A stretch of DNA of 22,845 nt, from the IMG/VR virus record IMGVR_UViG_3300037114_000074; one strand, written 5' to 3'. The position numbers were made by a program, and so were the translations under genes. The notes under the pieces are model-generated. The model worked only from the letters and a program-made list of their open reading frames with translations, was not told where the DNA came from and did not search any database. Of the stretch, positions 11,379 to 16,624 are shown piece by piece. The DNA comes from an uncultured virus (IMG/VR IMGVR_UViG_3300037114_000074) (taxonomy: Duplodnaviria; Heunggongvirae; Uroviricota; Caudoviricetes). Every line of letters starts with the position of its first letter. Position 1 is the first letter of the stretch.

Positions 11379-11611
11379 TACTGCACCGGCGCCCAGGTCG
11401 GCTTGCCTTGACACTCGATCCACGCGCCGCCGGTCGTGTAGATGCGCCCGTCGCGCAGCGTCCCGCCCCCAGGGTTCTGCGTGTACATCGCGGCGATTTG
11501 AGTTTTGCAGTCCTGCGCAGAGGCGTACTGCAGCGACCCAGAAGCGGTGCAATAAGCTTGCGTCGAATTGACGGGCATGCAGATGAAGATCGCGTAGATC
11601 ATGGCGTTCAT
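11378..11611 (-). CDS. Small Cys-containing hypothetical protein (77 aa)
   Basis: GGAGG RBS, ATGA overlap with the TerL stop, hydrophobic N-terminus, four Cys. Confidence 0.65.
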   Translation of the reverse strand: MNAMIYAIFICMPVNSTQAYCTASGSLQYASAQDCKTQIAAMYTQNPGGGTLRDGRIYTTGGAWIECQGKPTWAPVQ

Positions 11612-13230
11612 GCGTCCTCCGGTTCAGAGTCCAGCAGCGCGTCGCTGATGCGTATCGGACGCCATCGCGGTGCGAACAGGATCATCAGTGCGTCGGCCCG
11701 GTTGGGAGACAGGGAGCCGTCGGGCATTTTGTCCACCACGACCTTGCCGCTCGCCGATGTCTTCCACTGCGGCTGCGACAATTCGATGCAGAGCTTTTGC
11801 ACATCTGGGATCGCGCTCGACAGGCTGATGAGGCTGTCCGGATCATACTCCCCGCCGGCAACCGCACCGTGCGTATTGCGAAAGAGGTCGCGCAGGTGGA
11901 AGTACGCCTGCGCCTTAGCGTTCTGATAGCGGTCCTTGGCCTTGACGTCAGTGCCTGGCACCAGCCGCTCAGGCTCGAATACGGCCGCCGATCCTCTGAA
12001 GTCCTGCACCCGCACCGAACGCAACTGAAGGGCTGCCTTGCGCCGGGCGAGAATCCGCTTGGCATCCCCGCGCACCCCGGCACCTAAGCCGTCCGCGTCG
12101 TAGTCGAAGCCGTCGAGATTCAAGTCATCGCACAGCTGGAAGGCGCGCTCTGTAGTGGCGAAGATGTCGGAGTTCTTGCCACTCCACACCTCACACGCAA
12201 GCACCGACATGCCATGGCGGGCTGCAAAGCAGTTGAGGTCCCGCCCCTCGTCCGCCACATCCAAGGCCCCACGGCGCACGCCCGTGGGTGTGAGTTTGAG
12301 CTTCTTATCGGCATCGACCGCGGACTGCACCCACTCCTGAGGAATGATGACGCCCTCGATGGAAGCGGAGTAGTCCAGCTCGTACTGCGAAGCCCACACG
12401 ACCGGATCACTCGCCCCTTTTTTGGCATCGCGCCAGGCGTCGTCCTTGCGCAAGTCATCGCGGTAGTGGTACGTGAAGACGGGCACGCGACCTGAATGCC
12501 GGCGCATCCCGAACCAGTTCGACATGCCGTTCACGCTCGACCAGTCGATGCGACAGTCGGTAGTGGCGATCAGTGATTGTTCGATGAGATCCGGGTGTTC
12601 GGTGAACGCCGACTCGTCCACGCCATAGATCGCCTTGCGACCACCCAGGCCAATGCGATCCCCCGCCTCACCCGTGATGCTCGAGCCGGTAGCAGGAAAG
12701 AGCAACCGCAGGTAGAGCGAGTCCCGATTCACATCCCAGCCGTTGCGAAACTCCACCGGCAGCAGCGACATGAAAGCGCGCGCCTTGTAGAACAGCGTGT
12801 CTGGATCCCCGGTGCGGTCGAGTTTGTCCTCTTTCGCCGATCCGACACCAATCATCATGCCGTCGTGAAACAGGCAAAGCGTGCAGGCGAGCGCCATAAA
12901 GAGCCAGCTTGCCCCAACATCGCGGGACTTCTCGATGAGGGCCGATTCGTTGTGGCGCCAGCGCTCGACGATCCAGTCGACCAGCTCTCGTTGCTTGGGC
13001 ATCAGCACGAAGGGAAGCGTCGTCGGGCGCCCAATGGCGACGTTGCGCGGGTCTACGGTGCACCCAAAATCATTGATGAAATCCGCAGGGTGAGTGCGGT
13101 AGTAGACACGCAGCCCCGGCAACATGTCCGGATTAGCGCGTAGGCGATTGATGCGTTCGACCCGAGCCTGGACTATTGCCAGGTAGTTGGGCTCCTTCCA
13201 GTCGAACAACTCTTCAGCGCGCGCGTTCAT
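11608..13230 (-). CDS. terL: Terminase large subunit
   Basis: 540 aa. Walker A-like EKSRDVGASW, Walker B YGVDESAF, nuclease motifs ALDVADEGRD and SPNRADAL. Confidence 0.93.
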   Translation of the reverse strand: MNARAEELFDWKEPNYLAIVQARVERINRLRANPDMLPGLRVYYRTHPADFINDFGCTVDPRNVAIGRPTTLPFVLMPKQRELVDWIVERWRHNESALIEKSRDVGASWLFMALACTLCLFHDGMMIGVGSAKEDKLDRTGDPDTLFYKARAFMSLLPVEFRNGWDVNRDSLYLRLLFPATGSSITGEAGDRIGLGGRKAIYGVDESAFTEHPDLIEQSLIATTDCRIDWSSVNGMSNWFGMRRHSGRVPVFTYHYRDDLRKDDAWRDAKKGASDPVVWASQYELDYSASIEGVIIPQEWVQSAVDADKKLKLTPTGVRRGALDVADEGRDLNCFAARHGMSVLACEVWSGKNSDIFATTERAFQLCDDLNLDGFDYDADGLGAGVRGDAKRILARRKAALQLRSVRVQDFRGSAAVFEPERLVPGTDVKAKDRYQNAKAQAYFHLRDLFRNTHGAVAGGEYDPDSLISLSSAIPDVQKLCIELSQPQWKTSASGKVVVDKMPDGSLSPNRADALMILFAPRWRPIRISDALLDSEPEDA

Positions 13231-13709
13231 TGGCCGATGAGCTTTGCGTAAACTTTCATCGCGTCCACATCAGTCATATCGCCGCCGACTAAAGCGACGG
13301 GAATGGGTCCACCATTCTTGCCACTGTGTTCCAGCGACTGCTTGACGCGCCATTCCTCTGGCTTGCGATTGCTGAGCCACAATGTAGCCGCGCCAACATC
13401 AGGCGCCACGTGCTCAGTGTACGGAACCAACAGCGGCTGGCCATCGCTCTGAAAGATTTTCACCGCCGCATGCGAATATCCAACAGCGCGGTGAAAGAGC
13501 GAAGTCTCGACTCGATCATCAGCGGCTTCCTTGCCCACCTTCAGTGCCTGACAAAAATCCGGGTATTCCGCCTTCCAGCGATAGAGCGTGCGCACGCATA
13601 CGCCGAGTTCTTCAGCGACTTCAAAATCAGTCGAACCTTTCGCGCACAGATTTGCTGCGCGCTGACAGAAGTCGGGCTGATAATCCGTGGGGCGGCCGCG
13701 CTCAGCCAT
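13227..13709 (-). CDS. terS: Terminase small subunit
   Basis: Start ATG at 13709 (TAATG overlap), 160 aa. GRPTDY, HTH EVAEELGVCVRTLYRWK, WLSNRKPEEWR and EHSGKNGGPI. Confidence 0.88.
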   Translation of the reverse strand: MAERGRPTDYQPDFCQRAANLCAKGSTDFEVAEELGVCVRTLYRWKAEYPDFCQALKVGKEAADDRVETSLFHRAVGYSHAAVKIFQSDGQPLLVPYTEHVAPDVGAATLWLSNRKPEEWRVKQSLEHSGKNGGPIPVALVGGDMTDVDAMKVYAKLIGQ

Positions 13710-14506
13710 TACGTCCCCTGCTCCTGCAGCGCCTGCATCTGCACCTGCCATTGCGCGATCGACAGCCCAGCGGGCGTGGTGCCGTTGGCTTCGACGAAGT
13801 CCCCGTCGATGAGGCCGTACGCCTCATCCACGAACGCGGCAAAGAACGCCGGCGTCATGGTGTAGAAGTTTCCCCACGAGATCACCACGTAGTTGCCGGC
13901 GGCGTCGTATCCGCACAGCACCACGCAGTGGCCGCCGACGATGGTTTGGTCAGCGGACGGGTTGACGTCCCACACGGAGCCCGCGGCGGTAAGCCCGTTC
14001 TCGAGGAACGCAGGCACGTCGAAGCCGATGTAGGCAACACCGCAGTCAGCGATCGTGCGTCGCACGTCCTCGGGCTTGCTCGGGTCCACCTCCACGAATG
14101 CGGTCAACTCCCGTCCGTTGAACCCGGTCTTCATCCAGTACGTCAGCACGTCCTGCTCGACGCCGCCCTGGTCGGTGGAAGGGTCGGCAGTGTTATACCC
14201 GCACGCGCCTTCGTACAGCGCCAGTACCGCTGGGTCAGGCGGGGTCTGCATCGCCAGCAGCGCGTTGTACGTCCACACCTGGTCTGCGTGTCCACAACCC
14301 GCACACGTACAGTCGCCCAACGAATTATTCAACATGACCCCAAGGTTCGATGGCATGCCAGTGCCGTAATTTATGGCCGTCGGGATCGGCGGCAGCGTCA
14401 CGCCGGCAATGAGCGCAGACAGGTGAGGCACGCGAGGATTGCGAGTCCGGGGGAGCCGACCGTACTTCAGATTGGGATTTATATACTTAACTCCCACGGC
14501 GCTCAT
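13709..14506 (-). CDS. Papain-like (C1-like) cysteine peptidase
   Basis: Start ATG at 14506 (ATGA overlap), 265 aa. N..LGDCTCA (catalytic Cys), GGHCVVLCGYD (His) and ISWG. Confidence 0.75.
   Translation of the reverse strand: MSAVGVKYINPNLKYGRLPRTRNPRVPHLSALIAGVTLPPIPTAINYGTGMPSNLGVMLNNSLGDCTCAGCGHADQVWTYNALLAMQTPPDPAVLALYEGACGYNTADPSTDQGGVEQDVLTYWMKTGFNGRELTAFVEVDPSKPEDVRRTIADCGVAYIGFDVPAFLENGLTAAGSVWDVNPSADQTIVGGHCVVLCGYDAAGNYVVISWGNFYTMTPAFFAAFVDEAYGLIDGDFVEANGTTPAGLSIAQWQVQMQALQEQGT
14474..14501 (+). repeat. Left terminal inverted repeat
   Basis: GGGATTTATATACTTAACTCCCACGGCG. Confidence 0.9.
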
Positions 14507-15405
14507 GCGAACAGCCTTTCCTGCGTGAGCGTTGCCGGGAGACAGGCTGGCGAATACCAGACGCACTCTCTATCCGTGGTTTGGCCGCCTGAATACGTGA
14601 GACGACCGCGCGACCACTCCACGGCGTCCCATCCATCTAGCGCGTAATCGCCCTGATGTCCGCACAAGGCGATCCGCAGGTGCTCGTTCGCGCGTGCCCA
14701 TGCCTCGACGGCATCGGCAACCGCGCCCGCTTTGCCGTAAAGCGCCTCGTATGACCGATAGGGCGGGTCCAGGAATACCGCTGCGTCATCGCCGCCGAAG
14801 TGATTGTTTAGGCAACGCGACCAGTCACCATGCGTCACGCGCACCCGCTCAAGCCTGTCAGCGATCCGATGCAGCCACGCCCATGCTGTGCGCCCGCAGG
14901 AGGTCAGCAAGGCATCTGCGCCCCTCCCGGCATCGCTCGCGTGCGGGATTTTGCCTATGGCCTGCACGCCCATCCCGGCATTGCCCGCGTGCGGGATTTG
15001 GCCGAACCAATCGCACCACCCAGAGCCGATCCAGCAGCATTGCCCCCACAGCCACCACCCGGCGACCTTGGCATCACCGGGCCAGTCCGGGTCTTGCATC
15101 TCCGCGCCGATGCGGTCGCGCTGCGCCATGAGCCATCCGTGACGCGCGCCGAGGTCAATGTGCGAGACCGGGTAATCCGCCCATTCCGCAACCGCCGCCG
15201 GTTGATGCTTGACCGCGCGCCAGAAATTGGCGATGAAGCCAGACCCGTCGCACACGACTTCAAGCGCAGCCGGGCGCGGCGCAGCCAGCAGAACCGCCGC
15301 CGATCCGCAGAAGGGCTCGATGTATTGCTTAGGCGATCCGAGCCGCGCCCACACAGCCGCCGCGACCGTGCGCTTCCCTCCGAAATATGGGAACGGGCTA
15401 TTCAT
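14503..15405 (-). CDS. DNA adenine methyltransferase (Dam/D12 class)
   Basis: 300 aa. PFPYFGGK, SAM-binding YIEPFCGSAAV and catalytic FLDPPY in alpha-group order. Confidence 0.9.
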   Translation of the reverse strand: MNSPFPYFGGKRTVAAAVWARLGSPKQYIEPFCGSAAVLLAAPRPAALEVVCDGSGFIANFWRAVKHQPAAVAEWADYPVSHIDLGARHGWLMAQRDRIGAEMQDPDWPGDAKVAGWWLWGQCCWIGSGWCDWFGQIPHAGNAGMGVQAIGKIPHASDAGRGADALLTSCGRTAWAWLHRIADRLERVRVTHGDWSRCLNNHFGGDDAAVFLDPPYRSYEALYGKAGAVADAVEAWARANEHLRIALCGHQGDYALDGWDAVEWSRGRLTYSGGQTTDRECVWYSPACLPATLTQERLFA

Positions 15406-15418
15406 AACCCGCTGATTT

Positions 15419-15446
15419 CGCTGTGGGAGTCAAGTATATAATTCCC
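15419..15446 (-). repeat. Right terminal inverted repeat
   Basis: The minus strand reads GGGAATTATATACTTGACTCCCACAGCG. Confidence 0.9.
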
Positions 15447-15453
15447 TTCAGAT

Positions 15454-15633
15454 TCATGGCCGTCGTCCCAATATCCCGCCGTTGTCGGCGCGCAGCACAT
15501 AAGGCACGGGAACCCGCGGATGCGATATGCGCCAGGCGTGGGCTATCGGGTCAACCGCAGGGCCTGCCTTGGGTTTGAACGCCGTGGCGAAGCGGCCGTG
15601 ATGCCGAGACAGTGACTGTAAACGCATCGGCAT
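15454..15633 (-). CDS. Small basic hypothetical protein (59 aa)
   Basis: GGAG RBS; MPMRLQSLSRHHGRF...GILGRRP. Fills the gap, and its stop overlaps the ATG at 15457. Confidence 0.5.
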   Translation of the reverse strand: MPMRLQSLSRHHGRFATAFKPKAGPAVDPIAHAWRISHPRVPVPYVLRADNGGILGRRP

Positions 15634-15635
15634 GC

Positions 15636-15857
15636 CTATCTCCTGCGAATCGCGCGCGCCAACTGCAGCCGGTGCGCCTTGCCGTAGAGCTGGTAGAGAT
15701 CCACGCCGAGCTTGTTGGCGAGCTCGTGCAGCGTCCCGGCTTCGCGCGCGCTATCGTACTCCGCAACCAGCGTCGTAATCATCTCGGCTGTCCACATGCC
15801 TTTGTGCTCGTGCGTCGGCTCAGGTGCTGAGGTTTGTTCTGTCACGGCTTCAGCCAT
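15636..15857 (-). CDS. GcrA-like HTH DNA-binding protein
   Basis: WTAEMITTL...ELANKLGV......GKAHRLQL resembles the GcrA N-terminal domain (WTxE...IAxxLG...GKAHRLGL). Start approximate. Confidence 0.6.
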   Translation of the reverse strand: MAEAVTEQTSAPEPTHEHKGMWTAEMITTLVAEYDSAREAGTLHELANKLGVDLYQLYGKAHRLQLARAIRRR

Positions 15858-15859
15858 CC

Positions 15860-16156
15860 TCACTGCGTAGCCGCAGCCGCAAGCAACGCCGGCGCGCTAA
15901 CATAGCGATTCAGAATCACGTTGTTGGCCGCCAACTGTTCCTGCACTGCGGCCAATTCCACGCGCGTCATCTTCAGCTCGTATACCAGCCGCGTGAGAAC
16001 GACGTTGGGCTTGCGCTCAATGGCGTGGCGAAGTGCTGTGTCGAGGCTTGTCACTACGGATTCCAGCGCTTTCAGGCGCGCGGAGGTTGGGTCATAACGT
16101 GCGGCTCGGCGAATCGGCGTCGGTTTGGCATGCTTGGTCTGTTTGTGCGTCGTCAT
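15860..16156 (-). CDS. Hypothetical coiled-coil protein (98 aa)
   Basis: GAGG upstream; heptad-like helix; tiles the operon. Confidence 0.6.
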   Translation of the reverse strand: MTTHKQTKHAKPTPIRRAARYDPTSARLKALESVVTSLDTALRHAIERKPNVVLTRLVYELKMTRVELAAVQEQLAANNVILNRYVSAPALLAAAATQ

Positions 16157-16159
16157 CCA

Positions 16160-16624
16160 TCACCTCGCTGTCATAATTCGTTGGATTTGCGCCAGCGCTG
16201 AACCGTCGGCTATCGCCGGCGCACAGTACTCCAGCACCCGGATCCCTGCCTCAACTGCGGCATTCATTTTTTCCCGATCGCGCGCAAATCCGCCCTGCGG
16301 CCCGCCGCGCAGATGGCGCCCGCGGTTGAACTCACTGGTCGCCCCGTGACACTCGATGGCGAGCCGGTGCGTGGGTGCGAACAGATCCAAACGCCAGCCA
16401 CGCTCTGGGTCAAAACGGTACTCGCGCACGAACAGGTACGAGAGCTTCACGGTCGAGAGTTGGAACAGCAGCGCACACACGTGCCGCTCGCGCTCTTCGC
16501 GTAACTCAGCCAGGCGCAAATCCCGCGCAGCGGGTGCCGTCGGCTTGACCACAGCAAGCCGCGTGCGCACTGAGTCGCGAACCGACTGCGGCAAATCCAG
16601 CACGCTGCGGATGCGTAGGCTCAT
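16160..16624 (-). CDS. PD-(D/E)XK endonuclease (very-short-patch/resolvase-like)
   Basis: REYRFDPERGWRLDL...LAIECHG...GRH.R...F.RDREKMNAA...G.RVL. Confidence 0.75.
   Translation of the reverse strand: MSLRIRSVLDLPQSVRDSVRTRLAVVKPTAPAARDLRLAELREERERHVCALLFQLSTVKLSYLFVREYRFDPERGWRLDLFAPTHRLAIECHGATSEFNRGRHLRGGPQGGFARDREKMNAAVEAGIRVLEYCAPAIADGSALAQIQRIMTAR

Follow-up and report, generated by a model that had tools for sequence, protein, structure and literature searches.

How could a gene in a dense phage operon still be read after a one-kilobase element has entered it directly behind its start codon? The question is raised by a stretch of 22,845 nucleotides from an uncultured virus of the Caudoviricetes (IMG/VR record IMGVR_UViG_3300037114_000074; this whole stretch is called the window below), in which a cassette with a DNA methylase gene separates the first codon of a putative peptidase gene from the rest of its body. 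An earlier note on this DNA had proposed that the cassette repairs the gene it interrupts by supplying a new in-frame start through its inverted end.

The cassette occupies positions 14474-15446 (973 bp) between two identical 8-bp target-site duplications, and all the genes around it lie on the minus strand. One duplication is on the side of the old start (15447-15454, AATCTGAA on the minus strand) and the other on the side of the peptidase body (14466-14473, TTCAGATT on the plus strand and AATCTGAA on the minus strand). The ends of the cassette begin GGGAATTAT and GGGATTTAT. They are inverted copies of 28 nt, one upstream of the methylase gene (15419-15446, minus strand, starting GGGAATTATATACTTGACTCCC) and one downstream of it (14474-14501, minus strand); the two match at 25 of 28 nt, and their outer 22 nt (14474-14495 in the downstream copy) are conserved in the family described below. 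The downstream end is free of stops in only one of its three outward frames, the one ending in ...CCC at the tip. The upstream end has a TTG at its positions 14-16, in frame with the old peptidase ATG.

The cargo of the cassette (14503-15405, minus strand) encodes a protein of 300 aa that belongs to phrog_56 and matches PF02086 with E 6e-8 and 33.1 bits (cut-off 22), over residues 7-69 only. The translation contains DPPY, which we take to be the catalytic motif of the D12-class N6-adenine methyltransferases, and the gene product is a predicted DNA methyltransferase of that class. Two 48-nt repeat units lie in frame within the gene (14908-15003, minus strand), each encoding 16 aa of the type GQIPHAxxAGxGVQAI. 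A near-identical viral contig of about 11 kb (G001, the twin of the window) has the cassette in the same site and two more units, four altogether, which gives a methylase of 332 aa. The repeat was found by self-comparison, and Tandem Repeats Finder reported no array at score 30. A tblastn search of the window with the transposase of the family gave nothing below E 4. Because the methylase is the sole gene of the cassette and a transposase is absent, the element is a non-autonomous derivative and not an insertion sequence (IS). In passages of a review of such elements, an IS with passenger genes is called a transporter IS and its transposase-less derivatives mobile insertion cassettes (PMC3129680). 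With its IS-type ends, passenger gene, lack of a transposase and occurrence at several sites, the element of the window has the sequence features of a mobile insertion cassette.

The insertion has changed the order of starts and stops on both sides. Upstream lies an ORF of 59 codons (15454-15633, minus strand), for which the family search gave no match; its relatives were found, among the viral contigs, in the twin contig only. The TGA of this ORF (15456-15454) is overlapped by the old peptidase ATG (15457-15455, minus strand), which the starts of the homologues also indicate. In the filled site the old ATG opens a leader ORF of 19 codons (15398-15457, minus strand; MNLKGIIYLTPTAKSAGYE), which is made of the old ATG, the duplication and the inverted end and whose TAG sits 2 nt behind the methylase ATG (ATGAATAG). 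The same arrangement is present in two other copies of the cassette (L237 and L239). At the far side the TGA of the methylase (14503-14505) is overlapped, as ATGA, by an ATG of the cassette (14504-14506, minus strand), and this ATG, together with the end, is found in five viral contigs. As the old ATG opens a leader into the methylase, stops and starts overlap in a chain that leads into the cassette and out of it again. A search of the minus strand between 13200 and 16700 gave neither a terminator-like nor a promoter-like site.

The region 14466-14506 takes in the duplication, the inverted end and the donated ATG. The cassette closes with 33 nt that form 11 codons, MSAVGVKYINP, in frame with the peptidase, of which ...V G V K Y I N P is the inverted end read through. 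The frame from ATG 14506 continues with NLKYGR and is open for 265 codons to 13709 (13709-14506, minus strand); the native residues begin at N12 and constitute the 254-codon body of the gene. The predicted peptide starts MSAVGVKYINPNLK..., and a prediction of RNA folding at this start gave nothing unusual (z 0.42). Window and twin are 100% identical across the junction. Downstream on the same strand are the genes of the small terminase subunit (13227-13751, phrog_309) and of the large terminase subunit (11608-13230, phrog_2). When the cassette and one duplication are removed, the gene reads M-N-L-K-Y-G-R from the ATG that overlaps the stop of the 59-codon ORF. On re-reading, the statements of the earlier note about the sequence (the ATGA overlap, the 11 codons, the frame and M-N-L-K-Y-G-R after excision) all hold. 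We infer that ribosomes would start at 14506 by coupling and that the peptidase would be functional; it and the downstream genes can probably still be made.

Whether M-N-L-K-Y-G-R was the original start can be judged from the relatives of the interrupted gene. The product belongs to phrog_19005 and has no Pfam match. The profile of its family matches the cysteine protease 3ois weakly (E 2e-4), the residues C66 and H193 are invariant in 36 aligned sequences, and one source names a homologue (P0119) 'Peptidase C39-like domain'. On these features the product is a putative papain/C39-like cysteine peptidase. A protein search with the peptidase gave 1107 relatives, and 35 of the best 120, chosen for approximately full length, were aligned. 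None of these 35 homologues has the SAVGVKYINP extension, as had been predicted. Their N-termini, which are starts predicted by gene callers or from ORFs, lie 0-14 residues before a conserved K-(L/Y/F)-G-R, with Met directly before this motif in 11 of the 35. One homologue (P0003, 69% identical) starts MALKYGR. Among phage copies without a cassette, the closest (L003, 83% identical) starts MTGVKYGR with an ATG that overlaps an upstream stop, and the fused protein matches the PHROG profile from residue 12 onwards; both support the original start that had been proposed. The natural spread of head lengths in the family suggests that a head of 11 residues is tolerable.

A profile scan of viral contigs gave 55 loci with relatives of the peptidase. 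Cassette-type ends at a distance of up to 1.5 kb were present only in the twin of the window, and none was found within 1.5 kb of the 53 other viral peptidase loci. In most of the viral loci in which the motif was found, the nearest in-frame ATG is 1-6 codons before it. GenBank phages searched with 13200-16200 gave no match in the near mode and a terminase fragment only in the distant mode. The empty site of this phage itself was not found by an exact 24-mer in metagenome contigs, by the peptidase search of metagenome contigs, or through the 59-aa upstream ORF in viral contigs. Contigs of sequencing runs X5-X8 contained no joint across the cassette where this was covered; in X8 there is one joint from inverted end to inverted end, with only 21 nt on one side.

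The same cassette has entered other sites. A stretch of 17 nt spanning the donated ATG and the inner end is present on five viral contigs with different flanks, and the cassette is therefore mobile or was so recently. In the most informative copy (L237) a perfect duplication, AAATTAAA, follows immediately on GTG-GAT, the first two codons of another gene, which encodes an endonuclease (phrog_93). Its donated ATG reads MSAVGVKYISP and then 124 codons in frame (135 in total), and a gene caller picked this homologous ATG (P0121). A cassette-free homologue of the target (P0122, 79% identical) starts MGNKPPTT and is without the extension. This copy is best read as an independent second case in which the cassette entered in frame behind a start, and it bears out the suggestion that other copies might land in frame at gene starts.

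The remaining copies are less orderly. One (L239) lies between genes; the ATG of the next gene follows after about 24 nt, the duplication is unrecognisable, and the frame ends after 30 codons. The outward frame of another (L235) ends after 42 codons, and its other side is off the contig. A third (L238) measures only 700 bp and lacks a duplication; its frame runs for 37 codons through a hydrophobic stretch. L238 and L239, which have no matching duplications, are probably rearranged or recombined copies. In a freshwater run (X8), compared over 14474-15451 of the window, a cassette of about 99% identity is present in another site, where the 8-mers at its sides agree at 7 of 8 positions and the outward frame, read by hand on a loose end of 30 nt, ends after about 18 codons. 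Runs X9-X14 contain a share of the sequence words similar to that of X8, and RNA runs contain at most 0.07 of the words. Since the frames of L239, L235, L238 and X8 are short (about 18-42 codons), the donated ATG is used in some sites and not in all.

The ends of the cassette belong to a much larger family. A scan of viral contigs with the end motif gave at least 158 stretches, which represent at least 165 ends on at least 117 contigs. Among the ends listed there are at least 43 facing pairs, 313 to 3509 bp apart, and 31 of these 43 pairs are flanked by perfect 8-bp duplications. The recurrence of the 22-nt motif on so many contigs, together with these duplications, shows that the structure of the cassette is not due to chance. 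At positions that the search pattern did not fix, position 15 is T in 157 of 157 and position 22 is C in 147 of 157 unique viral ends listed. The cassette ends fit the consensus ggnnatTAT, presumably that of the ISNwi1 group. Elements of 1.4 kb or more encode a protein of about 305 aa with PF12762 and PF12760 (E 6e-47 and 3e-9 in L151:637-1551), which is the IS1595 transposase.

In the scanned transposase-less cassettes, the cargo that could be named comprises C5 methylase, N6/N4 methylase, Mom-family proteins and a QueD-like enzyme; seven cargo ORFs have no family. One member of 1.9 kb has a second N6/N4 methylase besides a transposase. An Eco29kI-type nuclease and an ORF that looks like a C5 methylase are enclosed by a pair of ends that spans 2.3 kb and has no matching duplication. 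In a 1155-bp cassette (L097:1609-2719) a QueD-like gene (PF01242) stands beside a 215-aa ORF without a family, and the pair may be a small deazaguanine-type DNA-modification module. Cargo ORFs were also observed to use the ends as gene signals (L142:1609-2280; L105:1858-2265; L088:2429-2932; L097:1609-2253). Some start at the ATG of end positions 14-16 and encode proteins beginning MTP..., and several terminate within the other end, at its TAA, with proteins ending ...E-S/L-C-I.

The end motif is not confined to viruses. Bacterial genome contigs contain at least 138 stretches in many phyla, and the carriers include Alpha- and Gammaproteobacteria, Acidobacteriota, Planctomycetota, Patescibacteria, Dehalococcoidia and Fibrobacter. 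Short, MITE-like forms are present as well: two of 139 bp (L241:401-539 and L270:401-539), one of 171 bp (L258:401-571) and one of 312 bp (L311:401-712), the last two with perfect 8-bp duplications. No clear tie to start codons was found for these forms of 139-312 bp on genome contigs. Many ends beside a transposase gene (for example in L082, L178 and L140) have TTGACT at positions 14-19, then 17 nt, then TAGxxT, which looks like an inward promoter with its -35 box within the inverted end.

The targets of the family are AT-rich. The 31 duplicated targets have 18% GC compared with 58% in their flanks, and their positions 2, 3, 6 and 7 are almost always A or T. In the window, with 63% GC, only 658 of about 22,800 positions offer 8 nt with no more than two G+C. 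Empty sites were reconstructed and classed by eye, for 33 sites including the window and L237, with gene starts as predicted. Eight of the 33 fall in codons 1-8 of a gene; in 4-5 the duplication encloses the start codon or the start codon straddles its end; about 11 follow a stop codon and precede the next start; and the rest are inside genes or of ambiguous class. Over all viral and bacterial ends listed, an ATG directly before the duplication occurs 11 times against 5.2 expected (p about 0.02); for an ATG that straddles the end of the duplication, the figures are 14 observed and 5.1 expected. The enrichment is modest. The elements are related to one another, so that these counts are not independent, and the p values given here and below ignore kinship.

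In 7 of the eight insertions behind a start codon the element provides an in-frame ATG, where the expectation is about 25% (binomial p 4e-4); in the eighth it provides none. The rescuing ATG is that of a CATG core in the end in three cases, an ATG abutting the end in one, the ATG at the methylase stop in two (the window and L237) and an ATG in the second open frame in one. Over 150 ends, an in-frame ATG is available in the first open frame in 67, in the second in 47 and in the third in none, which amounts to about 25% at random phase. In the consensus end, no stop interrupts the outward frame with the CCC tip, and the second frame is open too; the third contains a TAA, at which several cargo ORFs terminate. 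Long outward frames, counted crudely, did not favour any of the three phases (27/24/24), and this count was set aside as uninformative in GC-rich DNA. Rescue in seven of eight cases is what selection against destructive insertions would be expected to leave, and by itself it is no proof of design.

We consider it probable that the locus reflects permissive, partly start-bearing ends acting together with selection, in an IS1595-derived mobile insertion cassette that came to lie behind the peptidase ATG. A non-autonomous cassette derived from an IS1595-type IS, with its transposase presumably supplied in trans, would have entered an AT-rich 8-mer beginning at codon 2 of the peptidase, in an orientation along the late operon and without bringing in a terminator-like site. 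The stop of the 59-codon ORF would still overlap the old ATG; the 19-codon leader would cross the first end and stop behind the methylase ATG; and the methylase TGA would overlap the cassette ATG, from which 11 codons would cross the second end into the peptidase body. Entered in this manner, the peptidase exchanges its first residue for a head of 11 residues, a length within the range of N-termini in its family. In the family at large, the 22-nt end would be passable in two of its three outward frames and would often contain, 15 nt from its tip, a palindromic CATG core that offers an ATG; in a gene entered between two codons, the 8-bp duplication would bring the ATG of either direction into frame, and selection would retain the insertions that fit. 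The earlier note had left open whether the rescue was due to a lucky insertion or to a built-in property of the ends. The family data point to both, to permissive ends and strong selection, and at the level of the sequence its interpretation is supported.

A stronger version of the role of the ends is possible, although we regard it as doubtful: the IS1595-type ends of phages would have evolved as two-way translation adaptors, the transposase would prefer the regions of start codons, and non-polarity would be a designed property. The triplet at positions 14-16 is ATG, TTG or GTG in 118 of the 157 viral ends listed. The CATG core is an ATG in both directions. Outward it reads ATG-TAT-ATA-ATT-CCC, five codons to the tip; inward, the 8-bp duplication and the first G of the end complete three codons, so that after a hit at a codon boundary the end is read GGA-ATT-ATA-TAx-xTG and positions 14-16 are in frame. 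Insertions behind a start codon are at a codon boundary in 7 of 8 cases (p 0.003), and one of the cargo ORFs mentioned above, L142:1609-2280, runs from the ATG of one end to the TAA of the other. ATG-bearing ends are, moreover, 4-6 times commoner on viral than on bacterial genome contigs: with kinship ignored, an outward ATG (CAT at positions 13-15) is present in 39 of 157 viral and 10 of 141 bacterial ends (Fisher 3e-5), and an ATG at positions 14-16 in 54 of 157 and 12 of 141. The viral excess and the end-to-end cargo ORFs hint at an adaptation of the ends, but both may reflect a few related lineages. Against a dedicated device, the AT-richness of the targets explains their choice on its own, many insertions are intergenic or of ambiguous class, and only a quarter of the viral ends listed carry the outward ATG. 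The cassette of the window is itself a poor example, with its donated ATG outside the conserved 22 nt and a downstream end that is open in one frame only.

It is unlikely that the insertion is a tolerated knockout, in which the peptidase is dispensable, is not made or is made in truncated form, and owes its in-frame ATG to coincidence. The gene-caller product for the peptidase of the window (P0001) has 189 aa as against the 265-codon frame, and with this end taken by itself, an open frame that has a start codon is not an improbable outcome. The start of P0001 lies far inside the gene, so that automated calling has ignored the donated ATG here. But window and twin alike have the 265-codon frame intact, and the K-Y-G-R...P-H-L-S-A-L block at its native N-terminus is conserved in the family, with G16, R17 and R20 invariant. 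In addition, the same cassette gave a second in-frame fusion in L237, and coincidence would have to account for the rescue of seven of eight comparable insertions.

The choice of another start codon in the same frame would leave the gene readable and change only its head. There are two candidates in the open frame, GTG 14497 within the inverted end and GTG 14566 within the methylase gene, and we consider the use of either in place of ATG 14506 improbable. Neither GTG overlaps a stop, while ATG 14506 has the ATGA typical of this operon and a AGGAAAGG stretch 8 nt upstream, and it was the homologous ATG that the gene caller chose in L237.

That there was no insertion at all, the methylase being ancestral here or the contig an assembly chimera, is hardly credible: the empty site of this phage was not recovered, but the inverted ends with an exact 8-bp duplication, the cassette in other flanks, the contigs of two independent runs (X6 and X7) that bridge the right junction and the homologous phage genes without a cassette all argue against it.

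The cassette, taken as a mobile element with permissive ends that has been filtered by selection, resembles several known systems and differs from each. The IS1595 family, of which Siguier et al. 2009 is said to be the founding paper, is the closest: the cassette has an 8-bp duplication and a passenger gene inside ends that are shared with elements encoding PF12762 and PF12760, and it exists in transposase-less copies, as mobile insertion cassettes do. It differs in that the elements described here are on phage contigs with a cargo almost only of DNA-modification genes, and in that their ends carry start and stop codons which preserve the interrupted reading chain. MIRUs (mycobacterial interspersed repetitive units) are short repeats that have neither cargo nor inverted ends and for which no transposase is known. 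They insert at start codons, and their internal ORF is coupled to the target by a 4-nt overlap, according to passages of one report (PMC12548453). The cassette likewise lies directly behind an ATG and has an ATGA (14506-14503) at the methylase stop, where coupling may be supposed by analogy; unlike a MIRU, it is a 1-kb gene cassette of a DDE transposon family, and it resides in phages. In passages of Furuta et al. 2010 (PMC2853133), restriction-modification (RM) genes are described within inverted repeats and 8-bp direct repeats on bacterial chromosomes. These units share with the cassette the placement of methylase or RM genes in transposase-less, transposon-like units with 8-bp duplications. 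They differ, in the same passages, in their repeats (65 and 26 bp) and their chromosomal location, and a start codon or an in-frame rescue is not mentioned there.

Rickettsia palindromic elements, which are repeats inserted in frame, and the mobile elements of mycobacteriophages are small mobile DNAs that persist in or between the genes of compact genomes. The cassette has in common with them this persistence in a compact genome without destroying genes. To our knowledge those elements have no cargo gene, and a donated start codon has not been reported for them. In open-access text, searched non-exhaustively, no report was found that describes this end family in phages, the DNA-modification genes it carries or ends that donate a start.

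The prevailing view is that phages contain few insertion sequences, since nearly any insertion into a dense, translationally coupled operon is harmful. The cassette and its family would represent one route round this polarity: the ends are readable, the ends or the adjoining cassette sequence provide start and stop codons, the cargo gene joins the reading chain, and the interrupted gene would retain a start. For annotators the locus is a warning, as the donated start was missed and a peptidase of 189 aa was recorded. The cargo of the family (adenine, cytosine and N4/N6 methylases, Mom-type and QueD-like proteins and a small RM pair) suggests a route by which anti-restriction genes are swapped. 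It may be proposed, tentatively, that one IS1595-type lineage colonises phage genomes across many bacterial phyla and that its 22-nt ends, through the palindromic CATG core, the TAA stop and the fit to the 8-bp duplication, act as two-way adaptors for the non-polar drop-in of anti-restriction genes. If this is true, the family would be a natural 'plug-in' system for the acquisition of genes by phages at the start codons of tightly packed operons.
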